From assembly GCA_963977415.1 (NCBI GenBank), contig CAXBOS010000007.1, forward strand, positions 89,851 to 153,850: a DNA stretch of 64,000 nt. Reading direction: 5' to 3'. A program made the translations under genes and the position numbers. The first letter of the stretch is position 1. Each line of letters begins with the position of its first letter. This stretch comes from an uncultured Schleiferiaceae bacterium. GTDB taxonomy: Bacteria > Bacteroidota > Bacteroidia > Flavobacteriales > Schleiferiaceae. Under the pieces are notes generated by a model. It did not search any database. It worked only from the letters and a program-made list of their open reading frames with translations, and had not been told where the DNA came from. This document shows positions 38,011-62,600 of the stretch, one piece after another.

Positions 38011-38163
38011 ACACCTTCATCACCATTCACCCTAACACATCAAGACTACACGTAAACACCTTATTACAAGACTTATATACTGAAATGATTGTGAAATACG
38101 ATGAAGCAGAATGAGCCAAAATGCTATATTTGTTTCAGTAATGTTTCAGTAAATTTAAAACCT

Positions 38164-40670: not shown

Positions 40671-40886
40671 ATGACAGGTTTAAATTTAAAAGAAGATCAA
40701 CTTCTTACCGCAGCCGATGTGGCTAGAATTTTAGGAGTGACCAAAAGAACGGTCATGACCTACAAAGCAAATGGAACGCTCCCCTATTATCAGCGAGGGC
40801 GAGTATTAAGATTTCGACCTGCAGATGTTGAAAAGCACATCGAGGAAAATATGGTTCAACCTCAAAATTATGCCTTATGCGGTTAG
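40671..40886 (+). CDS. Excisionase-family / MerR-like helix-turn-helix DNA-binding protein
   Basis: The sequence LLTAADVARILGVTKRTVMTYKANGTLPYYQRGRVLRFRPADVEKHI shows the HTH_17 pattern. Confidence 0.75.
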   Translation: MTGLNLKEDQLLTAADVARILGVTKRTVMTYKANGTLPYYQRGRVLRFRPADVEKHIEENMVQPQNYALCG

Positions 40887-42447: not shown

Positions 42448-43899
42448 ATGTTTGAACAGACCTTTAAAAATATAGACGACATACTCCATAAAGACGCAGG
42501 CTGTGGTAGTGAATTAGATTACGTCGAACAGACCTCTTGGGTGCTCTTCTTAAAATATTTGGACGACTTAGACCGTGACCGAGCTACTTCCGCTGAACTC
42601 TCAGGAAAGTCATACTCACCCATTATTGACCAAGAATACCAATGGAGTATTTGGGCAGCTCCAAAATTAGCGGATGGAAAAATTGACCACAATGCGCTGA
42701 CAGGTGATGACCTTTTGGACTTTGTAAACGGAAAATTATTTCCTTACCTCAAGAAATTTAAACTGTCAGCTGAAAATGCAGATACCATTGAATACAAGAT
42801 TGGCGAGATTTTTAGCGAATTGAAGAACCGTATCCAAAGTGGCTACAATTTGCGAGAAGTGATTAACCGCATTGCCGAGTTGCGTTTCCGTACTCATGCG
42901 GAAAAGCACGAAATGAGCCATCTGTATGAAGACAAAATAAAAAACATGGGTAATGCAGGGCGAAACGGTGGTGAATACTATACGCCAAGACCGCTTATCA
43001 CTACAATAGTAAAAGTGGTTAACCCAACAATTGGCGATAAAATTTATGATGGTGCTGTGGGTTCTGCTGGCTTCTTGTGTGAAGCGTTTGACTATCTGAA
43101 ATCAGGCAAGGAACTAAGCACCAAGGAATGGGAAACTTTGCAAAAAAGAACATTCTACGGCAAGGAGAAAAAATCATTAGCCTACATCATTGGCATTATG
43201 AATATGATTTTGCACGGTGTGGAAGCGCCCAATATCATACACACCAACACGCTTGCCGAAAACTTGGCCGACATACAAGAAAAAGACCGCTACAATGTGG
43301 TACTTGCCAATCCGCCTTTTGGTGGAAAGGAACGTGCCGAAGTGCAACAAAACTTCCCCATAAAAACAGGCGAAACGGCTTCCCTCTTTTTGCAGCACTT
43401 CATTAAAATTTTGAAAGCAGGCGGCAAAGCAGGCGTGGTGATTAAAAACACCTTTTTAAGCAATACCGATAATGCCAGTGTTGCCTTGCGAAAAGAGCTA
43501 TTACAAAACTGCAACCTGCACACTGTTCTAGATTTACCAGGGGGCACCTTTACAGGTGCAGGTGTAAAAACCGTGGTGCTGTTTTTTGAAAAAGGCAAAG
43601 CCACCCAAAAGGTTTGGTTTTACTCGCTTAACCCAGGTCGCAATTTGGGCAAGACCAATCCGCTCAACGAAAAGGATTTGGAAGAGTTTGTTGAATTACA
43701 ACAGACTTTTGGGGATAGCGAAAATTCTTGGTCGGTAAACATCAAAGACATCGACCAGAGCACTTTTGACCTGAGCGTAAAAAACCCCAATACACCAGAA
43801 GCCGACCCACTGCGTCAACCCCAAGAAATTTTATCAGCAATAAAAGCCTTGGATGATGAAAGTGCGGAAATCCTAAACTCAATTTCGGAATTGATATGA
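42448..43899 (+). CDS. hsdM: Type I restriction-modification system, methyltransferase subunit
   Basis: It has the HsdM N-domain (ELDYVEQTSWVLFLKYLDD), the AdoMet motif DGAVGSAGFL and the catalytic NPPFG. Confidence 0.9.
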   Translation: MFEQTFKNIDDILHKDAGCGSELDYVEQTSWVLFLKYLDDLDRDRATSAELSGKSYSPIIDQEYQWSIWAAPKLADGKIDHNALTGDDLLDFVNGKLFPYLKKFKLSAENADTIEYKIGEIFSELKNRIQSGYNLREVINRIAELRFRTHAEKHEMSHLYEDKIKNMGNAGRNGGEYYTPRPLITTIVKVVNPTIGDKIYDGAVGSAGFLCEAFDYLKSGKELSTKEWETLQKRTFYGKEKKSLAYIIGIMNMILHGVEAPNIIHTNTLAENLADIQEKDRYNVVLANPPFGGKERAEVQQNFPIKTGETASLFLQHFIKILKAGGKAGVVIKNTFLSNTDNASVALRKELLQNCNLHTVLDLPGGTFTGAGVKTVVLFFEKGKATQKVWFYSLNPGRNLGKTNPLNEKDLEEFVELQQTFGDSENSWSVNIKDIDQSTFDLSVKNPNTPEADPLRQPQEILSAIKALDDESAEILNSISELI

Positions 43900-45158
43900 A
43901 CGAGAATTGGGAAAATTTAAAGTTGAAAAATATCTTTTCCAAGATTAATGGTCTTTGGACAGGAAAGAAAGAACCTTTTGTAGAAGTCAAAGTCTATACA
44001 ATGACAAACTTCACAAAGGATTCATTTTTAAATAAAGCAAAGGAGCCCAGAGAAGTAGTTGCCAGCCTTTCTCAGTTTGAGAAAAGAAAGCTACAAAAAG
44101 GAGATATTCTAGTCGAAAAATCAGGTGGTGGACCTAATCAGCCAGTTGGTCGAGCGGTATTGTTTGATATTGATAATGATGAAAACAATACGTTTAGCAA
44201 TTTTACAACAAGGCTAAGAATTAACGAGAATTTCACTGACAAAGTCTACCCGAATTTTATACATCACTTCCTTCGTTTAAAATACATAGATGGTGAAACC
44301 GAGAAGTTTCAGAAGAATTCAACAAACATCAGGAACTTACAACTTGATGAATATCTAGAACAGTCGTTTTCTTTCCCACCACTCCACCAACAACAACGCA
44401 TTGTTTCCATTTTAGACCGTGCCTTTGCCGCCATAGATAAGGCCAAAGCGAATGCGGAACAAAACCTCCAAAACGCCAAAGAGCTTTTTGAAAGCTACTT
44501 GCAGGGGGTGTTTGAGAAAAAGGGTGATGGTTGGCAAACAAGAACATTATCCGACTTAGTGGATGAAGAGTGCAAGCTTTCTTATGGTATAGTGCAACCA
44601 GGACAGGACTATCATGATGGTTTACCGGTTGTTAGGCCTACTGATTTATCGACCAGATATATTAAAAGGCAAGGATTAAAGTTAATCGACCCAAAATTGG
44701 CTGAAGGTTATAAAAGAACCAAATTGATTGGAGATGAATTATTGCTTTGTGTTCGAGGCAGTACGGGAGTACTTTCAATTGCAACGGAAGAATTAAAAGG
44801 TGCAAATGTTACAAGGGGTATTGTCCCTATTCGATTTAATTTAGAGCTGATTGACCAAGAATTCGGTTACTATTTACTGATTTCAAATTTTGTTCAAAAT
44901 CAAATTAGAGCGAAGACTTATGGTGCTGCTTTAATGCAAATTAATATTGGTGATTTAAGAAAAATTGAAACACCGTATCCAAAATCACTAAATGAGCAAC
45001 AAACCATCGTTCGAAAATTGGATTCCCTACGAACAGAAACGCAAAAGTTGGAAGTGATGTATCAAAAGAAAATGGATGATTTAGAAGAACTGAAAAAATC
45101 TATTTTGCAAAAGGCATTTGCAGGTGAGTTGGAAACTGAAAAAGCGTTTGCAGTATGA
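43896..45158 (+). CDS. hsdS: Type I restriction-modification system, specificity subunit
   Basis: It has two target-recognition domains separated by conserved helices (LHQQQRIVSILDRAFAAIDKAKANAEQNLQNAKELFES and NEQQTIVRKLDSL...LKKSILQKAFAGEL). It has an ATGA overlap with hsdM. Confidence 0.85.
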   Translation: MNENWENLKLKNIFSKINGLWTGKKEPFVEVKVYTMTNFTKDSFLNKAKEPREVVASLSQFEKRKLQKGDILVEKSGGGPNQPVGRAVLFDIDNDENNTFSNFTTRLRINENFTDKVYPNFIHHFLRLKYIDGETEKFQKNSTNIRNLQLDEYLEQSFSFPPLHQQQRIVSILDRAFAAIDKAKANAEQNLQNAKELFESYLQGVFEKKGDGWQTRTLSDLVDEECKLSYGIVQPGQDYHDGLPVVRPTDLSTRYIKRQGLKLIDPKLAEGYKRTKLIGDELLLCVRGSTGVLSIATEELKGANVTRGIVPIRFNLELIDQEFGYYLLISNFVQNQIRAKTYGAALMQINIGDLRKIETPYPKSLNEQQTIVRKLDSLRTETQKLEVMYQKKMDDLEELKKSILQKAFAGELETEKAFAV

Positions 45159-46990
45159 AAGTAAAATTAAGCCAAGCAGTCAAAATGTTTTTTGGAAACT
45201 CATCACTAGAGATGGTTTTCTTTGAAGCTATTGCTAACGCTCTAGATGCAAATGCAACGGAAATCCAAATTAAGATTTCGGTAAAAGCACTGAATCAACC
45301 TGAGACACTTCAATTTGAAATTTCAGATAATGGAGAAGGTTTTACAGATGAACGATATAGTAAGTTTTCTAAACTATTTGATGTAGACGAAAGCACCCAT
45401 AAAGGTTTGGGGAGATTGGTATATCTCTGCTACTTTGAAGATGTCCAGGTCAGCAGTTATTTTGATAAAACTAAAAGAAGAACATTTGATTTTTCAGAAG
45501 GGTTTGAGGCGGAAAAGTTCAAAGTTGAAAAAGTCAATGAACAGGCATCTGGCACTAGCTTTAAAATGACCAACTATGTTTTGCAAAAAGTTGCAAAATC
45601 AGATTATATCCAGCCTAAAAAAATCAAACAACGTGTATTAGAAGAGTTTTACGCAAGACTATTTCAACTGAAAAAGCAAAAGAAAAGTATCAAAATAAGC
45701 ATTAGCTCTGCAGTTGATGGTAATAGCTCGAATATCAATATTGAAAATAGCGATATACCTGAGTTTACCGCCCTCGAGTTGCAAAGTTCAATGAACCTAA
45801 TTGATAAATTTCTTTTGTATTACTCTATTACAGAAGTTGATCCTGAAGATTCATCATTAATCGCAGCTATATCTGTTGATAATAGAACTGTAAAGGTAGA
45901 TTTGATTTCAAACGAGAATCTTCCGCTTGGATATGAAATGGTTTTCTTGCTTTATTCTGACTATTTCACGGGTAAAATTGACGCGGCAAGACAAAACTTA
46001 ACCATCTCATCACATGAGCTTAAGGAAATCCAAAAGATTTTTCGACAAGAAGTAGTATCGCTGATTGAAAGTAAAATCCCCAAAATAAAAAAGCGGAATA
46101 ACGACGTAAAAAAGAACCTAGTAAATCGCTTTCCTCACCTCAGTGGCTATTTTGACACTCAAAATATTGGGTACGTTTCTCGTTCAGAAATTTTAAAAAA
46201 GGCACAAGAGGATTTTTTTAAGGAGCAAAAAGAGGTCTTGGATGCAACAAGTCTGAGTGATGAACAATTTGAGAAATCGCTAGAATTATCTTCAAGAGCA
46301 TTAACTGAATACATTCTATTTAGGCAACTAACCATAGAAAAACTAAAAAAATCTACAAACTCAAATAGCGAAGCAGAACTACATAAGCTTTTTGCCTCTA
46401 TGCGAAAAGATGGAAGATTTGAAAAGCAGGATTCAGTTGATGATTTATATAGAAACAATGCGTGGTTGTTAGATGATAAATACATGACATATGAGACTAT
46501 CCTAAGCGACAGAGAAATGGGTGAACTATTGCAAGTTATAACGGATGAGGAAGAAGTTTCTGACGAGAATCGACCCGACATTGCTTTGATATTTTCAAAT
46601 AATCCTGATAACAAGAAACCTTTTGACGTTGTAATAGTGGAACTTAAGAAAAGAGGCATTTCGCTAGAAGAAAACATGAAGGTCATAACTCAATTAGAAA
46701 AAAGAGCTAGGCGGTTAATGCAGCATTATAACAATCAGATTCAGAGGATTTGGTTTTATGGAATTATTGAATTTAGCGAAGATGTAGAAATGCAATTAGC
46801 GGGCGAATACACAGAGCTTTATTCTTCAGGTAAAATGTATTATCGAGAAACTAATGTTGCTATTTCATTGAATCCAAAAATCACCCTTCCTATAGGTGTA
46901 TTTATTTGGGATTTAGATGCTGTAGTAAATGATGCTGATTCCAGAAACTCGGCATTTTTGAATTTGATCAAAAATAAATTCAAACAGTAA
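45155..46990 (+). CDS. Uncharacterised GHKL (Bergerat-fold) ATPase fused to a PD-(D/E)xK nuclease-like domain, embedded in the type I R-M operon
   Basis: The N-terminal GHKL motifs are EAIANALDANA (E-x3-N-x2-D), SDNGEGF and KGLGRLVYL. The C-terminal nuclease-like motifs are EAELHKLF, NAWLLDD, RPDIALIF, VVIVELKKRG and QLEKR. It has an ATGA overlap with hsdS and a TAATG overlap with hsdR. Confidence 0.6.
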   Translation: MKVKLSQAVKMFFGNSSLEMVFFEAIANALDANATEIQIKISVKALNQPETLQFEISDNGEGFTDERYSKFSKLFDVDESTHKGLGRLVYLCYFEDVQVSSYFDKTKRRTFDFSEGFEAEKFKVEKVNEQASGTSFKMTNYVLQKVAKSDYIQPKKIKQRVLEEFYARLFQLKKQKKSIKISISSAVDGNSSNINIENSDIPEFTALELQSSMNLIDKFLLYYSITEVDPEDSSLIAAISVDNRTVKVDLISNENLPLGYEMVFLLYSDYFTGKIDAARQNLTISSHELKEIQKIFRQEVVSLIESKIPKIKKRNNDVKKNLVNRFPHLSGYFDTQNIGYVSRSEILKKAQEDFFKEQKEVLDATSLSDEQFEKSLELSSRALTEYILFRQLTIEKLKKSTNSNSEAELHKLFASMRKDGRFEKQDSVDDLYRNNAWLLDDKYMTYETILSDREMGELLQVITDEEEVSDENRPDIALIFSNNPDNKKPFDVVIVELKKRGISLEENMKVITQLEKRARRLMQHYNNQIQRIWFYGIIEFSEDVEMQLAGEYTELYSSGKMYYRETNVAISLNPKITLPIGVFIWDLDAVVNDADSRNSAFLNLIKNKFKQ

Positions 46991-49317
46991 TGAACGAAGC
47001 AGAAACTAGAGCAGAACTTATTGACCCGAAGCTAAAAGCTTGTGGATGGGGCGTTTTAGAAGGCTCTAAAGTACTGCGTGAGCATCACATAACTGATGGT
47101 AAAATTCAATCAGGAGGTGGTCGTGGCAAAAAGATAATTGCAGATTACATCTTGGTTCATAAAGGTATTAAGCTTGCCGTAGTTGAAGCCAAAAGTGACG
47201 ATTTAGAAGTAGGCGAAGGTGTAATGCAAGCCAAGCAATATGCTGAGAAACTGCAATTAGAAACCACTTACAGTTCCAACGGAAAAGCCATTTACCAAAT
47301 CTGCATGAAAACAGGCGAAGAAGGTTTGGTGTCAGACTATTTAAGCCCCGAAGAACTTTGGAATAAAACTTTTGCCGAGCAAAACGATTGGAGAGAAAAA
47401 TTTGCAGATGTCCCCTTTGAAGATAAAAGTGGAACTTGGCAATTGCGTTACTATCAAGAAATAGCGGTTCAGCGTGCGCTTGAAGTCATAGCAGCGGGAA
47501 CAGATAGACTACTACTGACACTTGCAACTGGAACAGGAAAAACGGCCATCGCTTTTCAAATTGCATGGAAGCTGTTTCAAACCCGTTGGAGCTTGCAAAG
47601 AGACGGCAGTCGCAGACCAAGAATTTTGTTTTTAGCAGACAGAAACATTTTAGCTAATCAAGCATTCAACTCATTTTCATCATTTCCCGAAGATGCTTTG
47701 GTACGGATTAAGCCCAGTGAGATTAAGAAAAAAGGAAGAGTGCCAACTAATGGCAGTATCTTCTTTACTATTTTTCAAACTTTCATGAGCGGTACGGATG
47801 AAGAAGGAAAACCAGCACCCTATTTTGGAGAATATCCCAAAGACTATTTTGATTTCATCATTATTGACGAGTGCCATCGTGGCGGAGCAAATGATGAGAG
47901 TAATTGGCGGGGTATTTTGGAGTATTTCAGCCCTGCAGTGCAATTGGGTTTAACCGCTACACCCAAGCGAGATGACAATGTGGACACCTACAAATACTTT
48001 GGCGAACCTGTTTACATCTATTCACTAAAAGAAGGCATCAATGATGGTTTCTTGACGCCTTTCAAAGTAAAGCGCATCAAAACCACTTTAGACGATTACC
48101 GCTACACTTCTGATGACACCATTGTGGAAGGTGAAATTGAAGAAGGCAAATTGTATGAAGAAAAAGACTTTAATCGAAGCATTGAAATTGTAGAACGGGA
48201 AGCTAAGCGAGTAAACGTTTTCTTGGAAGAAGCAAACCAAGACGAAAAGTCCATCATATTTGGAGCAAATCAAGCTCATGCGGCTTTGCTAAGAGATTTA
48301 GTAAACCAAAATGCTAAAAGCAAAGACCCTTTTTATTGTGTTCGTGTAACTGCCAATGATGGAGAAGAAGGCGAAAGACTATTACGCGAATTTCAGGATA
48401 ACGAAAAGACCTTACCAACCATTTTGACAACTTCGCAAAAGCTTTCAACGGGAGTAGATGCGCGGAACATTCGCAATATCGTTTTGCTTCGCCCAGTTAA
48501 TTCAATGATTGAGTTCAAGCAGATAGTTGGTCGTGGCACTCGCCTATTTGACGGCAAAGAGTTTTTCACCATTTATGATTTTGTAGATGCTTACAAACAC
48601 TTTTCAGACCCTGAGTGGGATGGAGAACCTTTAGAGCCTGAACCTAAAGAACCTAAAGCTTATCCAACTCCTGAGACTAAAGACAAACCAGATGTTGAAG
48701 ATCGTGATGACCTTAGACCCAAAAAGAAAAAAGCTCGGGTAAAACTGAGAGATGGAAAGGAAAGGACTATCCAACATACCGTTCAAACTTCATTTTGGAG
48801 TGCGGATGGTAAACCTATCTCCGCAGAAGAGTTTTTGAATAATCTATTTGGAGAACTCCCCAAGCTATTCGCAAACGAAGAAGAGTTGCGGAAGCTTTGG
48901 AGCAATCCTCTCACGAGAAAAACATTATTAGAAAAATTGGATGCCGCAGGCTTTCCAAAAGACGATTTACTGACTTTACAGAAGTTAGTGGACATGGACA
49001 AAAGCGATTTGTATGACGTGTTAGAGTACGTTTTCAATGGCGACTATATCGCGATGACTCGAGAAGCCAGAGCAAAGGCAGCAGAAGCGACCATATTTGC
49101 TCTACTCAATGACAAACAGAAAGAATTTCTTGCCTTCGTTTTAAGTAAATACGTTGAAACAGGCGTTGATGAACTCGACCAAGAGAAACTCCCAATCTTG
49201 CTAACCAACAAGTACCAGTCACTAGAAGATGCCAAAGAAATATTAGGAGACGTAGCAAATATCAGTCGATTGTTTATTGACTTTCAGGAGCATTTATACA
49301 ATCAGAAAGTCGCGTAA
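46990..49317 (+). CDS. hsdR: Type I restriction endonuclease, R subunit (EcoEI-like C-terminal domain)
   Basis: It has the N-terminus MNEAETRAELIDPKL, the nuclease motif DYILV...VVEAK, the helicase motifs TGTGKT, DECHRG and LTATP, and the C-terminal FLAFVLSKYVETGVDELD. Confidence 0.9.
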   Translation: MNEAETRAELIDPKLKACGWGVLEGSKVLREHHITDGKIQSGGGRGKKIIADYILVHKGIKLAVVEAKSDDLEVGEGVMQAKQYAEKLQLETTYSSNGKAIYQICMKTGEEGLVSDYLSPEELWNKTFAEQNDWREKFADVPFEDKSGTWQLRYYQEIAVQRALEVIAAGTDRLLLTLATGTGKTAIAFQIAWKLFQTRWSLQRDGSRRPRILFLADRNILANQAFNSFSSFPEDALVRIKPSEIKKKGRVPTNGSIFFTIFQTFMSGTDEEGKPAPYFGEYPKDYFDFIIIDECHRGGANDESNWRGILEYFSPAVQLGLTATPKRDDNVDTYKYFGEPVYIYSLKEGINDGFLTPFKVKRIKTTLDDYRYTSDDTIVEGEIEEGKLYEEKDFNRSIEIVEREAKRVNVFLEEANQDEKSIIFGANQAHAALLRDLVNQNAKSKDPFYCVRVTANDGEEGERLLREFQDNEKTLPTILTTSQKLSTGVDARNIRNIVLLRPVNSMIEFKQIVGRGTRLFDGKEFFTIYDFVDAYKHFSDPEWDGEPLEPEPKEPKAYPTPETKDKPDVEDRDDLRPKKKKARVKLRDGKERTIQHTVQTSFWSADGKPISAEEFLNNLFGELPKLFANEEELRKLWSNPLTRKTLLEKLDAAGFPKDDLLTLQKLVDMDKSDLYDVLEYVFNGDYIAMTREARAKAAEATIFALLNDKQKEFLAFVLSKYVETGVDELDQEKLPILLTNKYQSLEDAKEILGDVANISRLFIDFQEHLYNQKVA

Positions 49318-49553: not shown

Positions 49554-50375
49554 CTAAAAGCTAAAGGATAGCTCACTTCTTGAAGAATCGTCCCATATGA
49601 ATTTCCACTTTATTATTGAATCTTTGGGACGATTGCGATTCTGTTCAACCACTCCAACTCTTAGCAGGTCAAGATGGTATTTATGTTCGTGCTTTTTTAC
49701 TTTAAATAATGACACAGCTCGGCAAAAAAGATTTTTATCGACATATTCTGCCTTTAGACCAAAGTTGATTAGTCTTAATTTTGATCCAACACTTGGATAT
49801 GCTATTGCATCCATATTCTCACCATGAAGCAATATTTTTGTAAAAGCGATTGTATGCAAGTACTCCTCTAACGTTTCTGAATCTGCCCTTTTCGTAAAAA
49901 ACGTTGTAATCTGTTTTTCAATCTGCTCATCTCTTGAGGTCGGAAATTCGTATTTAGACATTAGTTCTCGAAAATTAGGATTTTGCCTTAACAGAGGTAT
50001 TCCTGCAAATTGGCATGTAGCAATTTCAGCATCTTTTTTAGGTGCGAAATCTCCAACGAGAAGGAAATCACCATCCTTTGGGTTCAATTCATGAACAGTA
50101 GCTTCAAGCGAGTTAGAACCATAAAATAAACTTTCACCATAAAAATGACACCTTCCTATCGTTTGGGATTCAAAGTCCAAAAATGATTGATCACGGTACC
50201 AAATAGATGAAACGCTATTTATGGTGGGAATTTCTGACGCTGAAATAACTCTAGATCTAAATATGCCTTCAAAGTTATTTAACCAAGTCATGGGTCTGTT
50301 GTGGCCTATAATCGCATCAGCATAATAGGCGTGCAATTCATCTAGAGCTTGCTTCTCTTTTTCTCTTGCTTTCAT
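49554..50375 (-). CDS. RES-domain protein (putative NAD+-targeting toxin), no cognate Xre antitoxin gene adjacent
   Basis: It has GRCHFYGESLFYGSNSLEATVHEL (R75, E96) and YLHTIAFTKILL...MDAIAYPSVGS...INFGL (S195), which fits the R-E-S pattern. Confidence 0.55.
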   Translation of the reverse strand: MKAREKEKQALDELHAYYADAIIGHNRPMTWLNNFEGIFRSRVISASEIPTINSVSSIWYRDQSFLDFESQTIGRCHFYGESLFYGSNSLEATVHELNPKDGDFLLVGDFAPKKDAEIATCQFAGIPLLRQNPNFRELMSKYEFPTSRDEQIEKQITTFFTKRADSETLEEYLHTIAFTKILLHGENMDAIAYPSVGSKLRLINFGLKAEYVDKNLFCRAVSLFKVKKHEHKYHLDLLRVGVVEQNRNRPKDSIIKWKFIWDDSSRSELSFSF

Positions 50376-50533: not shown

Positions 50534-51985
50534 TTACTCAACATGCAGCTTGGGCGTAAATCCTAACACCTCATTAAATTTAATACTGACAGCCGCTTTA
50601 ACTTCTTCTGCCATCGATTGCGGCACTAAAAATGAGTCGTGAATGGTGAATATAGGCATGTCAGTAAACTCTTCTTGTAGGTGTGGTACCAAGTGCTCGA
50701 AAACCAATTTAGATTCAATAGACTGCATCATGTGGGCTAACTTATTTGGGGCCTTACGCTTGATAATATCAAAAAGGTGCACCACGTTAGGGAATGCTCT
50801 TACAAATAGTTTCTTCTCAATTGATAGTCTTTTTCTCCCCTCTGTCGGGAAACCAAAAAAAGCTGTGAAGATTGTGGCTTTAATTATCTTTCGATCAACT
50901 TCAGTTAACCCTAACCTTTCTGCAAAATATTCATAAAACTTCCCTTCTCGTGTAGTGTTCACAAAGCTCTGTATGTCTTCACTGTAAAGGGGTATAGCTT
51001 CTTTTGTTAAAATAAGGGTGTTAGATAAGTGGGGAGAAGAATAAGAAGAAGGTAAGTAAGAAGAGGTGAAAAGATCTTTAACGCGTTTTTTGCTATGGCT
51101 TGTTTGCCATACAGGTTGAGGATTAGAACTTAAATTTTGGGCATTTGGCATGTGATATTGCGTCTGACTAATATTTGGATGCCAAGATCTATAGTCTTGG
51201 AATCGAATCGACTTTAAATTTTTGTAATTGATGATCGAATCCGACTGCCAAAATTTTGGCTCAAACAATAACGACGATAACATGGGCTGTGAGTTAACAA
51301 AATCAATGTTACTTAGTGGTTCGCCATTCCAACGGAGAAACTGCCTTAAATCGGTACTTAAATTAGTTAGATTGGTATGCAGCCTACCATAATCATCCCA
51401 GCTACTAAAAAAGTGACCATCACGGATGTACTCTACAGAGATCTTTCGTTGTGAATACTTGTGATACGCTGTTTCAGCGTTGAGCAGTTGATCCTTTTCA
51501 AATTCTTTTTTTATAAAATCAATGGCTTCACTGTAACACATGGTCAAGCTGCCATTGAAATACTGCAGAATATCAAGATTAGTCTCTCCCTTTTGCACCT
51601 TACTTTTGATAAAATCGGTACGAATTTTCACAACTTTACTCCAAAAACGATTATCAGGCGCTTTTAATACTTCCAAATCTGTCCAGTATTTTTCTTTAAA
51701 TCGAAATTTTCGCGCTTTACTTTCACTATAGCTTGTGCACTCAATCACACCCGCCTTCAAGAAGTACTCTCTGTAGTCCTTAAAGTCTCGCACACCATAC
51801 TTTTGGAGCAATTGACTACTAATTGCAACATAGCCACTTTCTTCATCAAGATTTCTTCTCGAAACCCTCAGCGCAGTAAGCAAGTGAAGTAAATAGAGTG
51901 CTTTATCGTAGTTGAAGTTGAAATTCGGCTGATTTTCACTTATTAGCTGCTCTAATTTTAAATTATTAGGTAAAAATGTTTTCAT
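50534..51985 (-). CDS. Minimal family-A (Pol I / T7-like) nucleotide polymerase-like protein with N-terminal putative DNA-binding region
   Basis: GRLHTNLTNLSTDLRQFL compares with TGRLSSTDPNLQNIP...IRQAF. Motif A is DFVNSQPML (compare DYSQIELR), motif B is RKIIKATIFTAFFG (compare RRxAKxxNFGxxYG) and motif C is FTIHDSFLV (compare VHDE / T7 RNAP IHDSFG). Confidence 0.55.
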   Translation of the reverse strand: MKTFLPNNLKLEQLISENQPNFNFNYDKALYLLHLLTALRVSRRNLDEESGYVAISSQLLQKYGVRDFKDYREYFLKAGVIECTSYSESKARKFRFKEKYWTDLEVLKAPDNRFWSKVVKIRTDFIKSKVQKGETNLDILQYFNGSLTMCYSEAIDFIKKEFEKDQLLNAETAYHKYSQRKISVEYIRDGHFFSSWDDYGRLHTNLTNLSTDLRQFLRWNGEPLSNIDFVNSQPMLSSLLFEPKFWQSDSIINYKNLKSIRFQDYRSWHPNISQTQYHMPNAQNLSSNPQPVWQTSHSKKRVKDLFTSSYLPSSYSSPHLSNTLILTKEAIPLYSEDIQSFVNTTREGKFYEYFAERLGLTEVDRKIIKATIFTAFFGFPTEGRKRLSIEKKLFVRAFPNVVHLFDIIKRKAPNKLAHMMQSIESKLVFEHLVPHLQEEFTDMPIFTIHDSFLVPQSMAEEVKAAVSIKFNEVLGFTPKLHVE

Positions 51986-52147
51986 AAACTTTTTTACTTA
52001 TATAACGAACAAGAACAAAAAAAGTTTTTTTTTATTTCTAAAAACGCTAACTAATAAAAGAATCACCCCACCCTTAATGACGCTTGGGGGTCTATACCCC
52101 CCATGTTTAAGCTCAGCAATAGTATTAACTAAAAAATCCAAAAAATT

Positions 52148-52480
52148 ATGGTACGAGTTATTGCATACCACGAGAACACCAATCTCGCTGGTGAAAAGTT
52201 TTATTCCTTAAGTATTCAAGGTGGTATCGAAATGGTAAAATCGAAAGAGTCTGGTAATTTCTATGCGACAGCTAGAAAAACACGAATCACTACCACCTTT
52301 GATGAAGCAACTTGTCAAAGTCTAATAGGTGAAAGCCTTACTGGCTCTATTCAAAAGGTCGAATGCGAACCCTATGAATATACTGTTCCAGAAAGCGGTG
52401 AAGTCATTACGATGCACCACACCTTTACCTACATGCCTGATGAGCTTCAATCTGCTGAAGCGGCTGTCTTAGCTGACTAG
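52148..52480 (+). CDS. Hypothetical small protein (110 aa)
   Basis: This ORF is followed by a terminator hairpin. No motif was recognised. Confidence 0.4.
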   Translation: MVRVIAYHENTNLAGEKFYSLSIQGGIEMVKSKESGNFYATARKTRITTTFDEATCQSLIGESLTGSIQKVECEPYEYTVPESGEVITMHHTFTYMPDELQSAEAAVLAD

Positions 52481-52575: not shown

Positions 52576-53415
52576 ATGAACTTACGAAAAGCTAATCGAG
52601 GGCACTCGAAAATAAAATGCGCTTTACAAGGCCCAAGTGGCTCTGGTAAAACCTATTCAGCCCTATTAATGGCTAGAGGATTATGTGATAGCTGGAATGA
52701 AGTAGTCGTTATTGATACGGAAAATAACTCCGCTGATCTGTACTCACATCTTGGTGATTACAATGTATATGATCTTAGACCACCTTTCACCCCTGAAAAC
52801 TATATTAAAGCTATTCAGGACTGCAAAAACGCTGACATGAAGGTTATCGTCATTGATTCACTTTCACACGAATGGGAGGGTTCTGGTGGTATACTTACCA
52901 CGCATAGTGCTATGGCAGGTAACTCCTTTACCAATTGGTCAAAGTTAACTCCACGTCATAATGCCTTTGTCAATACTATTTTACAAACGGACTGCCACAT
53001 TATTGGTACGCTACGCACGAAACAAGACTACGTTCTTACAGAGAAAAATGGTAAGCAAGTTCCTGAAAAAGTGGGTTTAAAATCAATAACCCGTGACGGT
53101 ATGGATTACGAATTTACTGTGGTTTTTGATTTAGATATCAAGCATCAAGCAGTTTCCTCTAAAGATCGTACTGGGCTATTTGCCAAAACGCCTCAATTTG
53201 AAATAAACACCAATACAGGTGAAATTATTCGTGCTTGGTGCGGTAAAGCTCTTACTAGCGAGGAACTGCAACTAAAGATTGATGAAACCTTTGATTTAGA
53301 AGAGCTACGACTTCTTTATAGCCAAAATCCTCAGCATCAAAACGAACTCCAAAATTATTTTTCTAAACGACGCATTGAAATTCAAGAAAATGGAAATACT
53401 ATCCCTCAAAACTAA
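52576..53415 (+). CDS. AAA_24 / Sak4-like RecA-fold ATPase (phage-type)
   Basis: It has Walker A LQGPSGSGKT and Walker B VIVIDSLSHEWEG. Its length of about 280 aa matches phage Sak4-type proteins. Confidence 0.65.
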   Translation: MNLRKANRGHSKIKCALQGPSGSGKTYSALLMARGLCDSWNEVVVIDTENNSADLYSHLGDYNVYDLRPPFTPENYIKAIQDCKNADMKVIVIDSLSHEWEGSGGILTTHSAMAGNSFTNWSKLTPRHNAFVNTILQTDCHIIGTLRTKQDYVLTEKNGKQVPEKVGLKSITRDGMDYEFTVVFDLDIKHQAVSSKDRTGLFAKTPQFEINTNTGEIIRAWCGKALTSEELQLKIDETFDLEELRLLYSQNPQHQNELQNYFSKRRIEIQENGNTIPQN

Positions 53416-54325
53416 CGAAGGCTTTATAGAAGCCAACACACAATCTATCGATCTTCCTCTTTTACAAGAGCAAACGATTATACCTGCTTTTGCAAAAGAC
53501 AACGAGTCTACTATTAGCCATATTGACTTTGTAGAAAATGTATACGAAGCAGTAAGTCACGTGTTTCCCACTGAATCCATATCTGAGCCTACTGTAAAAG
53601 TATCTCACCCTATTAGAGGCAGAGTGCCAGAAGCGAAAGGAAAGCCCGCTAAAGAGCTTCTAGAGCATGAGAAAACCCTCTATTACGAGCGTATGGCCTT
53701 CATGATTGAAATACCGAGTATACAGGCTAAAATTGGTGACGATAGAATCTCACTTAGTGTAGGTGGCGTAAGGGCTTACAACCTAGAAAACCTCTACAAC
53801 AAGAAGAGCCCTGAGAAATTTAAAATCTTTATTGGTTTTAAAAATTGGGTATGCACGAATCTATGCGTTTCCACGGATGGTTTTTTATCTGATTTAAGGG
53901 TAAGCTCTCTCCATGATCTAATGGAAAAAGCTGTAAATCTCTTTCAGTCCTTCAATATTGATCGCGAAGTGCAGCAAATGCAACAAATGCAACGCACTCA
54001 AATAGACCATGAGCAATTTGCCCACATTATTGGACGAGCAAAGCAGTATTTAAATCTACCCAAGGATTTAAAAGCTACGAAGGAAAATTTCCCTTTAGGA
54101 GACAGTCAGCTTAGCCAGATGATTCGTGAGTACTATCAAGCAGGTGATGAACCCACAATTAACCTTTGGGACTTTTACAACCTGATGACTTCTGCGAATA
54201 AAAGCAGCTATATCGACTCTCATGTAGATCGTGTGGTTGAAAGCTTTCGCTTTACTCAAAGCCTAGGGAATTCGCTAGAAAACCAACTACCCAACTGGTA
54301 CACTCATTCCATTTATAATAACTAA
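53390..54325 (+). CDS. DUF932/DUF3871-like phage/plasmid protein
   Basis: It has the motifs HPIRGRVPEA, TLYYERMAFMIEIP, LSVGGVRAYNLENLY and FKIFIGFKNWVCTNLCVSTDG. The family assignment is from memory only. It overlaps the upstream gene by 26 nt (41 nt if it starts at 53375). Confidence 0.4.
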   Translation: MEILSLKTNEGFIEANTQSIDLPLLQEQTIIPAFAKDNESTISHIDFVENVYEAVSHVFPTESISEPTVKVSHPIRGRVPEAKGKPAKELLEHEKTLYYERMAFMIEIPSIQAKIGDDRISLSVGGVRAYNLENLYNKKSPEKFKIFIGFKNWVCTNLCVSTDGFLSDLRVSSLHDLMEKAVNLFQSFNIDREVQQMQQMQRTQIDHEQFAHIIGRAKQYLNLPKDLKATKENFPLGDSQLSQMIREYYQAGDEPTINLWDFYNLMTSANKSSYIDSHVDRVVESFRFTQSLGNSLENQLPNWYTHSIYNN

Positions 54326-56678: not shown

Positions 56679-59600
56679 ATGAAAACTGATCACATAACTC
56701 GTTTTGCATCCTTGCTCCTGGTTTTTTTCTTTTTGTCTAATGACCTAGTAGCAAGTGCACGTGCATTAGCCAATTGGAAGCATTTGCAAATCGGCACCTC
56801 TGCTAAAGAAGTTCTATCACCCAAATATCCAAGCTTAATAAATGCTCCTGCGGTTCACGAGAATGAAGCTGAAGCAGGAGAAAGTCCCACTAAAACAAGT
56901 GTAGCATTAAAACCAACACTTGACAAAAACACCATAGAGTTCCCTGCTATTGAGGCCACAGCACATTTGGGGATGGAGGTAAATATGCCATTAAATGATC
57001 CAAGAGATGATATATTCAATTTTCAATTGCCAGAAGACTTGGATTTCAATAATTGGACTTCAGCCTATTTGATTTACGAAGTAAAAGGATTGAAGGATGG
57101 TAAAGGTCTTGCAAAAAGCTTAAACTCCAATGAAACTTTTGGAACCAGAAATTTGGAGAAGTCCGAAACTTGGCATACCGTCCTAGAAAAAGTTAGCCCT
57201 CAAGACCTAAAAGTTGGGTTAAACTATTTAAGGTTTACCATGCCTAGCGCTACTGGAATTAGTGCAGAAGTGAAAAATGTAAAGATTCGACTTTCGGCCC
57301 TTCCTGACAATGAAATACAAAGCCCTAGACTGGAAAGGATTAAAACAACGGATTTAGATTATTTTAAATCTATTCCCGCGCTTGATGAGGGCTATGCCTA
57401 TCAGTTGAGAGAAGTTGAAATGCCCGTTCTACCAGAAGGTCTTATAAATATTACTGGCGGTGCCAAAGCATATCAGCCATCCATGGATGTGGTGAATAGT
57501 GCTGAATTTATTGGTTTTAAAATCAATATGGCTTCTCTTACCTCGCAAAGAAGTTTGAGTGAATTACAAGTCTTTTATTTTGATTATCAAAGGAAAGCTT
57601 GGCAAGGGGTAGAAATTGATTCGATTGATACCCATGGTGAAATTGCTTTTGTCCCCAATAAAGGACAAACCCAATATTTTGGGGCTTTATTAAAGTCGCC
57701 TGAAATGCCTGAGGCTAGTGCTTTTGCACCAACTATGATACAGGGCATTGAAGCAGCTAACCCTGCAGAAGGCATGAATATTATGCAACCTCCCAGTATT
57801 AGCAGAAAGGGAGAAGCAAATATTACTTACCCGCTTGATATACCATCAGGTAGAAAAGGAATGCAGCCAAATCTAGCTTTATCTTATAATTCAGATGGTG
57901 GAAGTTCTTGGGCAGGCTATGGTTGGGACATCTCAATTTCAAGTATTTCTGTGGATACAAAATGGGGTGCACCAGTATTTAAGTCGTCTGAGCAGTCTGA
58001 AATGTATATCATGGATGGGAATCCATTAATTGAAGAAGGTGGTGAAAGGGCTAATCGAAGCGTTTCAGCTAGAAAAGTTACTGGAACTACTTATTTTTTC
58101 ACCAAGAGAGCAACCACTTTCAATAAAGTTGTACGAAAAGGGACGGATCCGACAAATTATTATTGGGAAGTCACTAATGCAGAGGGTGTTAAATTCATCT
58201 ATGGCAAGTATAGCCAGAGCTACACTTTCGACAAGGGCGAGGGTAGCAGGCCTCTTAAAAACCATGAGCCTTTATTAAGAGATGCTGACAGTAACATTGT
58301 AAAATGGGGTTTAACAGAAGTTTTAGATGTTGATGGAAATAATGTTGTTTACTCCTATTCAAAACAATATATCATCAACCCAAATACAGTACAAACACCT
58401 GCTTTATTAGCCTATAGCTGGTACCCTAATAGTATTTTTTATACGGGTTCGGGTAATCGCCTAGGCCATTATATGATAGATTTTGAAGCCGATATTGAAA
58501 GAGTTGATGCTAGACTAAGTGGCAGATATGGCATTAAGGTCTTGGATCATAAACTTCTTAAGAATGTTAAGGTTAGATTTAAAGAAGAAGGATCTGCCAC
58601 CTATAGCACTATTTTAAAGTCCTATGGCCTGACACATACAAATGAACAAGAGGGGAATTTATGGCAATGGAAGTCAATGCTGTTAGAGTTGAAAGAATTT
58701 AGGGGTACTAATTTGCAGCTCTTTACAACCCATGAAATGGAATACTACCCTTCAGATGTGACTTTTACTGCTCCAACAGAAAAAACAGAGATTGAAGTTA
58801 ATTCATTGAACAATAGTTTCTTAGGTTCTGTGGCATTAGATGCAGTTGCAAGAATGCCCACTACCGCGTCCCTTGGAAGGATTTTCGCACCATCTCCTTT
58901 AGGCTCGAAAAATACTTCTACACATTCTTTCCATGCAAATCCTGGAATTGGCATTGTGCCAGGTGTATATGTAACTCCGGACAAGAATTTTACTTTTAGT
59001 GTAAAAGTAGGCGGCTCAAATAGCACAACTAACGTTCAAACTTCTTGGCAAGATGTAGATGCTGATGGATTACCTGATTTAATTACGAAAGAAAGAAGGC
59101 AAGGCAAGGATAAACTTTACTATCAACCCTTGCGGTCAAATTCAAATATGTATTTCTTAGGTAGTAGAAGAACTATCAATACATCCGAAATATCAAGTAC
59201 TCACAGGGCTGATTTCAACATTGGCTTTGAATCCTTAGTGAACTTATACGCCTTTCAAGCTTCTTACGGATTAAATTGGAATGATCATAGTACTTATACT
59301 GATAGTTACTTGATAGATTACAATGCTGATGGAGTATTGGATTTAGTAAAAAAGAGCATAGGAAATAAGACTTTCGTTCATTTTGGATCATTAGATGAAC
59401 TTGGTAATTTGAGTTTCGAAATCGGTAGTGGAAATAGTTTGAGTCCTACTTTACAAGTTGGTCCTAGGCCGCTTATCACTGATGATCCAGTAGATGCCAA
59501 AATGGGCTCTGAAATAGTTCGAATTTGGGAGGCACCAGAAAGTGGAATTATAGACATAACAGGACAAGCGAATCTTACAAATGATGCTGACGGTGAGGTT

Positions 59601-62600
59601 GAGATAGCAATTCAATATAACAATACCTATCTAACTGGTGGATTCTCGACTATAAATTCAACCAACCCAACATCAGCAAGCTACCCCAATCTTGCAGTTA
59701 CTAAAGGAGATAAAATTATGTTTCGTGTTCGGTCAGGCCTAGATAGTTATGAAGACTTAATTGAATGGGATCCTAGGATTTTTTACACTTCTAGCGCCAA
59801 TTTAATTGAACAATTAGATGGCGCAGGTAATGAATTGCTTAATACATCGGCATCAGATGGGTTTCTTCTTTCAGGTGGCGAGGCTATAGTTGTAAAAGGC
59901 GACAATAGTGTAAAAATTGATTGGCCTTCAATTGCACTAGATGGGTTTAGTGATGATATTCAGTTTAGAATCAGAATTGAAGCTTACGATCGGCTTAACA
60001 CAAGCGATACAACAGCAATTTTTCGAGAAACTTATGTCAACTCGGTAAATACTCTACAAGGGTCTAAAGTGATTTCAGCTAGTCCATCCGATTTTAGCGG
60101 GTTAAATCTTAATTCGAATATCTTAAACCAATTAGGGCAACAATTTGTACCTTTTGAGTTCTTAGATTCTTATGATGAAACTCAACTTCAGGGCATAACT
60201 ATTAATTTACGTTTTGGCATTTTTTCAACATCCAACGTAAAATGGAATGATGTAAATTTGGATTGGAGGCCAGAAGTAACAATAACTAGTGAAGGCTGCG
60301 GCTTAGGAGAAAGTCAAGTTTTTTACCCAACAATTAATTACCAGACCTACAATCATTTTGTTGAAACAATGGAGCCCGAAAGCTTCAATGGATTTGCAGG
60401 ATTACATCGAGTTTGGCCTACTTTTCCGTCTCAGGGTATTATTGCAAGTGCTTTTTCTAACATTGGCAATCAAAGCCTTTCAGCCTTTCTCACAGTAAAA
60501 TCAAATGAAACTTTGGTTACTAAAGCCAAAGTAGTGTTTAAACAAAATGGGCTTGTTGATGTCTTCAGCACAAATAGCGGGGGAGAAAGCATAAATCAAA
60601 TTTTTTCTTCAACTGCCTTACAAGATTATTTTTCTTTTTTGCCTGAAGAACTTTTAAACACCGAAGAAGTTTATCTCGAGTGGTTTAGTAGTTCGGAAAT
60701 TCTTGTTCCACTTTTGCAAGCAACAAGGCTAAATTTAATTAGTATTGCTTCTGGCTCTGTTGTGAAAGGGAATTTAAATGATCAGATTTTTAACCGAAAG
60801 AAGAGTCTTCTAAATGATCATTGGTTGCACTGGGGAAGGTTTATGTGGAACGACCTGGACATGCAAACCAACAATCCAATAGACCCGCTTGATCTTAAAT
60901 TACAAACAGAGTCTATTGCCTTAGCAAATGATTTAAGTGAATTAGAAGATCCCACTGAATCGAGCGACATTTCAAGTTTATTTAATACTCAAAATGAGCC
61001 TGAAATTAAATTCTTACCCCTTATTGCAGTCAGAGGAGAGCTTTCCACTTCAATTCGAAACTACATCAAAACAAATGTCAATGTCACATCTAATGGCGCT
61101 AAGTCATTAGACAGATTTTCTGCATTAAATTCGCACTCAGCTGAATACAGAGTTACAGGAATCGTGGCCCCTTGGCATTTAGTTGAGCCAGATCTCGAAA
61201 TCACCCCGAGTTCAAATAGTCCAATTCTGCCTGATATGGTTCCAGCAATGAGAAATAAAACCACCTCATACACTCTTGCAGATAATTTCTACGCTGGAGT
61301 AAATGGCCTAGGTGAAAACGGCAATTTCGGGGTCTCGCGTCATATAGATGACGCGGGCTTTTTCAATACTTCCGAAACCTTTATGAAAGACTTTAATGGT
61401 GATGGACATCCTGATATTTGGCAGAGCGACGATGTTGCAATCGTCTTTTCTGATTCTCGAGGAGGCTATCAAAATGGATTAGTGCCAATTTCTCAAGGAC
61501 CTAAAACTGATAGTAGAAATTTATTTTCGGCCTCGGTTGGTCTAGGGGCAACAATAAATATGCACCCTACAGTTATCAATTTTGATGATGAGCAAGATTC
61601 ATCCCCTCTAATTAATGGCCAAATCAATAAAGGTATGAGCATTTCGAAGTCGATTGGTCAAACCACCGTTGATATGCAATGGGTTGACATCAATGGTGAT
61701 GGGCTTCCTGACCGTATCGTTGAAAACACAAATTACTCAAATGGGAATATTTTAGTTCGATATAATATTGGCACATCACTCGCTGCGGGAGAAGCTCTTA
61801 TCCAAACCTATAGGAATACACTGGAACAAAATGCAAGTACAAGTTTAAGTTTCCCAACCAATTTTAAGGCTAATAAGCTCACTAACGTAACGGTTAATGC
61901 TTTAGACAGTGAAAAAACTACTGAACTGCCGATGGATGGAAGCTTCAATTTCGGCGTAGGTATTAATCGAACTAGCTCCCATGCTGAGTCTTTTTTTATA
62001 GATATAAATGGAGATGGCTTGGTTGATAGGGTTATTGAGAAAAATTTAGTTAAGGGGTATGACATTTTTCTAAATAAGGGGTTAGAGTTTTCCAATGACC
62101 CTATTACTCTTTCTGTCGTTCCTGACTATTTTAATAGTACCAACTCGGTTGCATTAAATATCGGTGGAGCGGCAACTGTAGGCATTCCGCTAGCAACAAT
62201 TTTATTGACGACTTTAAAGGGAACAATAGGTGGAGGTTATACTTACGCCTACTCGTCAGATCTTTCAAGCAGTTCATTTTCAGATGTTAATGGCGATGGT
62301 TATATTGACTTTTTAAAGACGGACTTTAATGAGGATTTAGAAGTGTACATTAATAAAAACGGAAAATCCCTCAAATTAAAAAAAATAATCAATCCTTTAG
62401 GAGGTGCTTTTGCGATAGATTACGATTTCATAGGCCATAAAAATGGTTATTACGCAGCTGAAGTTAAAGCGCCTGCAGGTTTTGGCATGGATAGCGAAGA
62501 AGTTCTTTGGGATATGCCACAGAGTAAATGGGTAATGTCTAAATTAGAAATTTTCGATGGCTATGATCTAGTTGAAAACGGCAATGATCTCGATGGTAAT

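Follow-up and report, generated by a model that had tools for sequence, protein, structure and literature searches.

What enzyme is encoded by a 483-amino acid (aa) open reading frame (ORF) on a genomic island of an uncultured Schleiferiaceae bacterium, and what does it do for that island? The ORF occupies positions 50534-51985 of the stretch of DNA analysed here, a window of 64,000 nucleotides. A first-pass annotation had recognised in it the motifs of a Pol I-family enzyme and had suggested a stripped-down polymerase that acts as a replication initiator, a primase-like enzyme or a defence-related nucleotide polymerase. From its predicted fold, profile alignments and conservation we describe it as a minimal family-A polymerase, very probably one of the Transposon-Virus polymerases (TV-Pols), with an additional N-terminal domain. 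The gene belongs to the core of integrase-borne mobile islands in Bacteroidota and is not cargo. On balance we favour the view that this catalytically intact, nuclease-less enzyme is the replication primase-polymerase of the island.

Fold, motifs and conservation of the polymerase

The ORF is intact and begins with ATG; we take this start codon to be correct because the N-terminus fits the family consensus MxxYLPxNLD. Motif coordinates were recomputed from the ORF frame, and the ORF and all motif positions agree with those of the first-pass annotation. The parts of the gene are listed below, with helices (H) and strands (E) of an AlphaFold2 (AF2) model given in residue numbers.

50534-51985, minus strand: minimal family-A (TV-Pol-type) polymerase with N-terminal winged helix; intact 483-aa ORF, ATG start
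51650-51985, minus strand: predicted winged helix (wHTH), residues 1-112 (the 'TV-PolN' region), from DSSP on the AF2 model
51416-51649, minus strand: helical linker and two-helix thumb (H151-166, H170-188), residues 113-190, from DSSP; two further helices at 113-142
51335-51406, minus strand: beta-hairpin (E194-196, E202-204) with invariant R201 (GRLHT), then NLTN and R214 (LRQFL), residues 194-217
51374-51388, minus strand: GRLHT
51263-51322, minus strand: motif A strand and helix, residues 222-241, with D228 (predicted catalytic) and N231-S-Q233-P234
51278-51304, minus strand: motif A, D228-L236
50990-51259, minus strand: variable, partly disordered S/Y/P-rich fingers insert, residues 243-332, gappy and unconserved in family alignment A1
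50852-50980, minus strand: fingers helices, residues 336-378, including the motif B O-helix R365-x3-K369-x3-F373-x3-F377-G
50852-50893, minus strand: motif B, R365-G378
50669-50743, minus strand: palm helix with LLQ421-S-I-E424, residues 415-439
50621-50653, minus strand: motif C hairpin F-T-I-H449-D450-S (E446-448, E451-455), residues 445-455
50630-50644, minus strand: motif C, I448-F452

The AF2 model, built with the family alignment, has a mean predicted local distance difference test score (pLDDT) of 85.1 and a predicted template modelling score (pTM) of 0.82. Values of pLDDT below 50 occur only at residues 280-316, which lie in the low-complexity S/Y/P-rich insert that the first-pass annotation had placed between motifs A and B; this insert is also gappy and poorly conserved. 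When the model was compared with the PDB using Foldseek, all of the top 50 matches were family-A DNA polymerases, among them Pol I of Aquifex, M. smegmatis, Taq and Bacillus (Bst), the apicoplast polymerase, Pol theta, Pol nu and T7 DNA polymerase (DNAP). The leading matches had a probability of 1.00, a best E of 5e-4 and query-normalised template modelling (TM) scores of 0.3-0.4. This PolA-only list bears out the right-hand palm and fingers fold. In BFVD, a set of predicted viral structures, the best matches were two phage proteins of 403-409 aa (TM 0.69/0.80 and 0.61/0.72, E 2e-22 and 2e-18), followed by phage polymerase-domain proteins of 400-450 aa; one of the top matches is named 'putative DNA polymerase I [uncultured marine phage]'. 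T7-like RNA polymerases (RNAPs) appeared in the BFVD comparison only from E 0.0077 up and are absent from the PDB top 50, and the replication protein of virophage Zamilon was a weak BFVD match (probability 0.91, E 0.3).

Alignment of the family with a PolA profile gave a residue-by-residue register. The profile contains 11 polymerase domains, two from E. coli Pol I and T7 gp5 and the other nine from diverse phage PolAs, and hhalign returned a probability of 88% and an E of 3e-6, with an extended alignment that spans residues 172-483. Residues 172-199 fall on the last part of the thumb of Pol I, and the GRLHT/NLTN/LRQFL block aligns to GRVHT...NLQNIP...IRQAF of Pol I, with the Pol I hairpin loop deleted in the window protein. 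D228 corresponds to D705 of Pol I, Q233 to the steric gate E710, R365/K369/F373/F377 to R754/K758/F762/Y766 of Klenow, Q421 to Q849, and H449-D450-S451 to H881-D882-E883. The GRLHT block and motifs A, B and C had thus been assigned correctly; the three motifs of canonical family-A polymerases are present in register, with the substitutions E710->Q, Y766->F/Y and E883->S. These motifs are well above chance and are not look-alikes.

Motif C had been described as closer to that of T7 RNAP than to that of DNA polymerases. The serine after HD supports this description, but the K..F..F pattern of the O-helix, the profile scores and the Foldseek results favour a DNA polymerase. Using a profile of eight T7-like RNAPs, hhalign gave a probability of 4-6% and an E of 0.007-0.011 in a sensible register; the comparison between the PolA and RNAP profiles is only relative, because the two small control profiles fail to detect each other. 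The family profile gave no significant hhalign result with the single sequences of Klenow, T7 DNAP and T7 RNAP, the best local matches being motif B for T7 DNAP and motif C for T7 RNAP. As read from the motifs, a DNAP-like O-helix is combined with an RNAP-like motif C in one enzyme.

The polymerase core comprises about residues 150-483, and its fingers are shortened. Its thumb, judged from secondary structure and alignment, is a two-helix unit at residues 151-188, which supports the drastic reduction proposed in the first-pass annotation. No 3'-5' exonuclease domain, active or vestigial, lies ahead of the polymerase domain, where the N-terminus is modelled as a winged helix and is not DnaQ-like. 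Searches of the polymerase ORF against Pfam, NCBIfam and PDB sequences likewise found no nuclease domain, as expected from the earlier statement that exonuclease domains are missing.

The extra N-terminal domain measures ~145 aa overall in the AF2 model. Its first 112 residues, part of the ~190 aa in which a possible winged helix had been suggested, do have such a pattern in the model (H26-42, H57-62, H68-77, E81-83, E93-96). A separate model of residues 1-150 has a pLDDT of 85, and its Foldseek matches were only winged-helix DNA binders (PerR/Fur, MarR, CodY) and the RepA_N plasmid initiators 4pql, 4pt7 and 5kbj. All of these matches are weak (E 0.01-0.04, probability 0.87-0.94, none below E 0.01); the RepA_N initiators (E 0.02-0.04, TM ~0.4) are interspersed with the Fur, PerR and MarR winged helices. 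On the strength of these models a winged-helix fold is credible, and the domain is probably a DNA-binding or targeting module.

The polymerase is "dark" to standard annotation. Single-protein searches of Pfam, NCBIfam, PADLOC and PDB sequences found no family match, and a 47-sequence family profile likewise found nothing significant in direct database searches that included Pfam. The Pfam family DNA_pol_A (PF00476) does not match the window protein, and the best of the 47 relatives reached only E 0.056. In PHROGs there was only a weak C-terminal match, to phrog_4756 (function not known).

Relatives are nevertheless numerous. A word-indexed protein search with the polymerase yielded 91 homologues, and a second such search with the family alignment gave no further distant relatives. 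When 1.84 billion cluster representatives were searched exhaustively with a profile, 8,988 proteins scored E<=1e-3, of which 3,359 reached E<=1e-30; both are counts of clusters at 50% identity. A scan of one genome per species gave 171 relatives, the best 80 of which are nearly all from Bacteroidota (Flavobacteriia, Chitinophagia, Cytophagia, Sphingobacteriia and Bacteroidia). Plasmid and viral collections contain the family only rarely. In a plasmid collection 1 of 72,556 records has a family match. In IMG/VR 4 of 2.9 million contigs carry a relative; one of these is an island with integrase, AAA_21 and SIR2, and one looks phage-like. A few phage records longer than 590 kb also match the family.

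Alignment A1 contains 47 sequences that are ~25-30% identical to the query, and its invariant columns are R201, R214, D228, P234, Y351, K369, Q421, E424, T447, I448, H449, D450 and G475. Residues were then counted in 308 near-full-length relatives of 391-599 aa (median 487). All 308 keep R201, Y351, K369, E424, H449 and D450, while D228 and Q233 are kept in 307, Q421 in 305 and R214 in 301. R365 is present in 268 (K in 24). Position 373 is F in 229, L in 39, M in 20 and Y in 19; position 377, at K+8 in the O-helix, is F in 240 (and in the window protein) and Y in 66. An acidic residue stands at position 337 (D/E) in 257 relatives and at position 352 (E/D) in 268. Serine follows the HD of motif C in 280, and HDE was never seen. 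Conservation of the catalytic Asp residues had been set beforehand as the test that could overturn the assignment, and D228 and D450 vary in one and in none of the relatives, respectively. Because the catalytic residues are invariant or nearly so in these 308 sequences, the enzyme appears to be under selection as an active polymerase.

Several side observations concern the distribution and naming of the family. Metagenomic genomes of huge phages (595-735 kb; LR756501-LR756504, LR756511 and LR745206) encode relatives, five of which are 29-33% identical to the query over 44-78% of its length; that of LR745206 covers only 13%. At least two diverged copies of the polymerase occur in some genomes: P0089 and P0090 lie on one Tenacibaculum contig (503,609 bp), and loci L019 and L061 represent two diverged copies in one Polaribacter metagenome-assembled genome. 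Such genomes would then hold several islands of this kind. Two homologues, P0018 and P0019, are named 'DNA-directed RNA polymerase' in UniRef and hypothetical at NCBI. The UniRef label is probably an automatic superfamily-based name and is unsupported by the profile and fold comparisons.

Relation to TV-Pols and other polymerases

TV-Pols were defined in 2008 as proteins of 400-600 aa with a minimal superfamily-A core (Iyer, Abhiman, Aravind, Biol Direct; PMC2579912). The core consists of a thumb cut down to two antiparallel helices, a beta-hairpin whose Arg is absolutely conserved, an RRM-like palm with two Asp, and fingers that carry an Asp and RxxxK and are inserted after the first palm strand (PMC2579912). 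No TV-Pol is linked to a nuclease, and members come from several phyla, among them Bacteroidetes (Cytophaga, Polaribacter, Psychroflexus, Flavobacteriales); a subset with an extra N-terminal domain lies beside gamma-delta resolvase, lambda-type integrase or transposase genes in hot spots rich in restriction-modification (R-M) systems (PMC2579912). Both primase and polymerase activity were predicted for them, and their functional equivalence to prim-pols was argued from in-situ displacement (PMC2579912). TV-Pols have also been proposed to be similar to the ancestor of Pol I and T7 RNAP.

The window protein resembles this description closely. It is a minimal core of TV-Pol size (483 aa) with no nuclease match, and a two-helix thumb (H151-166, H170-188) stands directly before the hairpin, ahead of the palm. 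The hairpin (E194-196, E202-204) carries the invariant Arg (R201, 308/308). The palm has its two Asp (D228, 307/308; D450, 308/308), and the fingers have RxxxK (R365, 268/308; K369, 308/308) together with acidic residues (D/E337, 257/308; E/D352, 268/308). As in the subset with an extra N-terminal domain (TV-PolN), that domain is ~145 aa long, an integrase is found at 61 of 82 loci, and the window itself holds an integrase and a type I R-M operon. Judged by these descriptive criteria of the 2008 paper, membership in the TV-Pol family is very likely. Two features differ. In 2008 an all-helical N-terminal domain was predicted, but the window model is a winged helix with three short strands; and the linkage to D5-like helicases stressed at that time is absent from most loci of the window clade.

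The first-pass annotation was aware of no characterised enzyme of this size and architecture. The architecture is not unprecedented, since the TV-Pol minimal core with an N-terminal domain was described in 2008 (PMC2579912) and CCPol-MP in 2020 (PMC7581432). The discovery is therefore incremental, the TV-Pol family and its predicted role having been published in 2008; what is new is a very large unannotated clade of the TV-Pol kind. No comparable group is mentioned in the available part of the text of the 2023 PolA census (Czernecki et al., PMC10201439) or of a 2026 bacterial polymerase census, and the term 'TV-Pol' was not found in the former.

Named TV-Pols include V13 of Sputnik, CCPol of SCCmec and proteins of Brucella and of phage Ma-LMM01, the last reported by Iyer et al. 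ORF030 of this phage (locus L097, 22746-24266, minus strand, 506 aa) lies beside IS605-type transposases, and its N-terminal 'YIQTNLKL' and C-terminal 'LLQRIE...HD' resemble YLPxNLD and LLQSIE...IHD of the family. Its hhalign result was not significant (E 0.075-0.087, including that with a seven-sequence profile). ORF030 may be the TV-Pol in question. ORF134 was rejected as a candidate, being a DnaG-type primase.

CCPol-MP of the SCCmec elements, which has been assigned to the TV-Pols, is a primase-polymerase (Bebel et al., eLife 2020; PMC7581432). CCPol together with the small protein MP makes DNA primers de novo from dNTPs, in dependence on two PolA Asp, while CCPol alone only extends primers (PMC7581432). 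Czernecki et al. (PMC10201439) place CCPol with their CHEAP cluster and point out that it keeps three exonuclease helices. It is the sole characterised TV-Pol and an atypical one, being exo-derived and MP-dependent. CCPol-MP and the window family are alike in that a nuclease-less A-family polymerase with the motif A and C Asp lies in the element core near a recombinase; the F762 equivalent is also conserved. They differ in the steric gate, which is Glu in CCPol and Gln in the window family. CCPol needs MP, a protein with an oligonucleotide/oligosaccharide-binding (OB) fold, and is operonic with the helicase Cch2; neither is a constant neighbour of the window family. CCPol is found in Bacillota with serine recombinases, whereas the window family is found in Bacteroidota with tyrosine integrases. 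Nor does the window family resemble the PolA-SSB pairs, in which an OB-fold gene lies downstream with a helicase: p110, a small gene next to the window polymerase, is divergent from it and present at 9/82 loci, and there is no constant helicase.

The Pol I family (Klenow, KlenTaq, Bst, T7 gp5) shares with the window protein the palm/fingers fold, the register of motifs A, B and C, Q849 and the Arg block before motif A. Compared with Pol I, the window protein is without 3'-5' and 5'-3' exonuclease domains, its thumb is reduced to ~40 aa and the loop between GRxHT and NLxN is deleted. It carries E710->Q, E883->S and Y766->F, has a variable fingers insert of ~90 aa and lacks a Pfam DNA_pol_A match.

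T7-like and mitochondrial RNAPs are similar to the window protein in their PolA-type palm, the HDS of motif C, a T/DxxGR-like hairpin and an N-terminal DNA-recognition module. The T7-like enzymes are ~800-900 aa long and able to start chains de novo. Residue Y639 of T7 RNAP, at the position equivalent to Klenow Y766, selects rNTPs. Similarity of the window family to RNAPs is much weaker than that to DNA polymerases (4-6% versus 88% by hhalign, with control profiles that miss each other), and the position of Tyr639 at K+8 is F in 240/308 and Y in 66, with Q in 307/308 in place of a small gate residue. Neither a specificity loop nor an intercalating hairpin of the T7 RNAP type was identified in the window protein. 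The piPolB enzymes of pipolins and the AEP prim-pols (pRN1 ORF904) are functional analogues, as priming polymerases encoded by elements near recombinases; the folds of piPolB (family B) and AEP are unrelated or only distantly related to that of the window polymerase.

Role of the polymerase in integrase-borne islands

ORFs were called in 82 non-redundant loci and the neighbours of the polymerase gene were clustered. A tyrosine integrase gene lies within six genes of the polymerase in 61 of the 82, at position -2 in 37, and an 87-aa HTH_17 (excisionase-like) gene occupies position -1 in 35. In L001 (Mesoflavibacter) the HTH_17 gene, which has a Pfam HTH_17 match, overlaps the polymerase start codon. 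The genes downstream of the polymerase vary and include type I and IIG R-M, AbiEii, SNF2/PLD, a TonB receptor, a Fur-like regulator and a P-type ATPase; the label of metal-resistance cargo (TonB-type receptor, P-type ATPase) comes from reading representative sequences. Because the polymerase stays by the integrase and HTH_17 genes while the defence genes vary, we regard it as a constant core gene.

In a second recurrent layout, seen in six loci, the polymerase gene converges with the integrase gene on one side and on the other side diverges from AAA_24 and DUF3871 genes. AAA_24 adjoins the polymerase gene in 11 of the 82 loci, as does DUF3871, and p110 is present in 9. The window has this same layout with cargo inserted between the polymerase and integrase genes. 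It also has the slot "int - HTH_17 - X", filled there by a DUF3987 protein; in 35 other loci the same slot holds the polymerase family. This shared slot suggests that, as modules, DUF3987 proteins and TV-Pols can be exchanged for each other, and it is a possibility that the window island is a composite of two element types.

From these data we infer polymerase activity, de novo priming, a preference for dNTPs, DNA targeting by the N-terminus and a role in replication of the element. The winged-helix domain would place the polymerase on element DNA after excision. A short DNA chain would then be initiated, lengthened or both at the PolA active site, probably from dNTPs, and the host replisome would continue from that chain. 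The preference for dNTPs is deduced from established knowledge of Klenow E710/F762 and T7 RNAP Y639. A role in replication is indicated because the active site is invariant, the gene lies at the core and it is co-transcribed with the HTH_17 excisionase-like gene. By analogy, the DUF3987 P-loop protein in the equivalent slot of the window and the precedent of CCPol-MP point the same way. The replication or primase-like enzyme of the first-pass annotation was thus a reasonable idea, fitting the core position by the integrase and the excisionase-like gene.

A number of points weigh against a replication primase-polymerase. The strong reduction of the core keeps the E-values of the PDB comparison modest (5e-4). 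No direct sequence link to a named TV-Pol was obtained: neither the family HMM (hidden Markov model) nor hhalign gave a significant score to any ORF within the first 150 kb of Ma-LMM01, and the weak Foldseek match to the Zamilon replication protein is the only link of this kind. CCPol needs the OB-fold protein MP to prime and sits by a helicase, and most loci here have neither; p110 is found in only 9/82 loci, and neither Pfam nor PDB sequences gave a match to it. Within 350 bp of the polymerase gene, no 9-mer enrichment over shuffles was seen across 81 loci. Because there is no such enrichment of iteron-like repeats and there are no clear att repeats in the window, no origin was identified. 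Finally, sugar selectivity cannot be read from sequence, because the gate residue is Gln and not Glu and motif C is HDS as in T7 RNAP.

A more specific form of the replication primase-polymerase, in which one ~480-aa PolA-fold protein would carry out origin recognition, de novo start and extension, with an unusual gate-Gln sugar selectivity, is possible but doubtful. Here the winged helix would take the place of two components of the SCCmec system, the OB-fold partner MP and the origin-binding helicase, and the gate Gln would give a sugar selectivity such as initiation with NTPs followed by elongation with dNTPs. If this is true, the protein would provide the first demonstrated case of partner-free priming by a PolA-fold enzyme, and it would serve in experiments as a proxy for the ancestor that has been proposed for Pol I and T7 RNAP.

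The enzyme might instead be a primer-dependent DNA polymerase only, extending host primers or nicks. It could, for example, displace a strand or fill a gap while the island is excised, integrated or copied in a rolling-circle-like manner. CCPol behaves in this way without MP (PMC7581432), the O-helix is DNA polymerase-like, and no OB-fold or zinc-binding helper is fused or consistently adjacent. However, a bare polymerase of low processivity would add little to a host that has Pol I, while the conserved winged-helix fusion and the slot, which holds primase/helicase-type genes in related elements, point to an initiating role, as does the equivalence to prim-pols argued from in-situ displacement (PMC2579912). 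We consider this explanation unlikely, although it deserves to be taken seriously. We judge it improbable that the enzyme synthesises RNA, as a mini single-subunit RNAP or RNA primase of the T7 RNAP/POLRMT kind directed by its winged helix to a promoter or origin. Its T-I-H-D-S motif C, never HDE (S451 in 280/308), is like the IHDSFG of T7 RNAP and gave the best local hhalign match to that single sequence; the steric-gate Glu is replaced by Q233, two homologues bear an RNA polymerase name in UniRef, and priming of replication by T7-like RNAPs was discussed by Iyer et al. (PMC2579912). Yet hhalign favours PolA (88%, E 3e-6) over RNAP (4-6%, E 0.007-0.011), RNAPs appear in Foldseek only at E>0.007 and outside the PDB top 50, and the equivalent of T7 Y639 is Phe in 240/308. 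The gate Gln is isosteric with Glu, unlike the small Gly of RNAPs, CCPol-MP uses dNTPs (PMC7581432), and the UniRef name is most likely automatic.

Defence genes surround the polymerase in the window (type I R-M, a RES-like ORF) and occur at other loci (type IIG R-M, AbiEii, SIR2, AAA_21), which would suit an anti-phage nucleotide polymerase in the manner of AbiK or DRT-type enzymes carried as island cargo. No PADLOC model matches the polymerase, though, and it lacks the fixed partner gene that is usual in defence systems; it is constant by the integrase and HTH_17 genes while the defence genes differ between loci and some cargo is metal-resistance-like. The defence-related option of the first-pass annotation is accordingly very improbable, and we rejected it. 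Still less probable is a catalytically dead polymerase fold retained as a DNA-binding initiator or regulator. The strongly reduced thumb, the large disordered insert and the missing Pfam DNA_pol_A match could be read in this sense, and vestigial polymerase partners exist in some PolA-SSB pairs (Rice 2023, PMC10061031). We rejected this explanation because the active-site residues are invariant: of 308 sequences that are 25-30% identical, 307-308 keep the metal-binding Asp pair, the Lys of the O-helix, the His of motif C and the Arg of the hairpin, a pattern that marks a functioning active site.

No versions of the Pol I / T7 RNAP fold smaller than the TV-Pols are known, and the clade of the window is very large (~9,000 clusters at 50% identity) and lies outside Pfam, NCBIfam and PADLOC. 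The polymerase marks a very common class of integrase-borne island in Bacteroidota with R-M, abortive-infection and metal-resistance cargo. A polymerase, and probably also a primase, encoded by these islands would change models of their excision, copy number and transfer. Such a compact enzyme is also of possible biotechnological use.

Other genes and features of the island

The other genes of the island in the window are the following.

38101-39393, plus strand: tyrosine integrase (Phage_integrase and Phage_int_SAM_5), convergent with the polymerase gene
39477-40463: 328-aa ORF
40671-40886, plus strand: HTH_17-like 71-aa ORF, assigned by BLAST clustering with the 87-aa ORFs; overlaps the start of the DUF3987 gene
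40877-42142, plus strand: DUF3987 gene (P-loop protein)
42448-49317, plus strand: type I R-M operon (hsdM, hsdS, embedded GHKL ATPase, hsdR), cargo
43896-45158: hsdS
45155-46990, plus strand: GHKL-type ATPase, 611 aa (HATPase_c 1.6e-8, HATPase_c_3 1.3e-6)
46990-49317: hsdR
49554-50375, minus strand: RES-like 273-aa ORF, directly downstream of the polymerase; sub-threshold RES match (E 7e-4, 20.1 bits versus a cutoff of 23.2)
52148-52480, plus strand: p110, a 110-aa protein of an unannotated family, divergent from the polymerase gene
52576-53415, plus strand: AAA_24 (Sak4-like, RecA-fold) ATPase (Pfam AAA_24 5.5e-20; phrog_1366 2e-77; phrog_124, Sak4-like, 4e-9)
53375-54325, plus strand: DUF3871 protein (Pfam DUF3871 8e-106)

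The DUF3987 gene ends (42142) 8.4 kb from the low end of the polymerase ORF (50534). No tRNA gene was found in the window, no iterons in the intergenic regions that flank its polymerase gene, and no convincing direct repeats that could serve as att sites around 38-55 kb. Beyond position 56673 the window contains no complete ORF of at least 100 aa, the largest ORFs listed in 56700-64000 being shorter than 100 aa; this region may be one long gene that runs past the end of the window, or it may be non-coding.

The p110 family has nine members, found alongside polymerase, AAA_24 and DUF3871 genes. Its invariant residues in alignment A4 include F18, G25, Y39, T41, G61, G66, Y76, E85, H91 and Y95, and p110 has no Pfam or PDB sequence match. 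A function as accessory or single-stranded DNA-binding partner, perhaps with an OB fold like MP of CCPol, is speculative. The 273-aa ORF may be a RES-type toxin-like cargo gene. In the R-M operon the GHKL ATPase gene lies between hsdS and hsdR, with stop and start codons that overlap or abut, and its product may serve in defence as an accessory ATPase linked to the R-M system. The 162-bp intergenic region between the polymerase and p110 genes is AT-rich and contains a GC-rich patch at ~52066-52105 (CACCCCACCC...TGGGGGTC...CCCCCC), which could form a hairpin or a protein-binding site.

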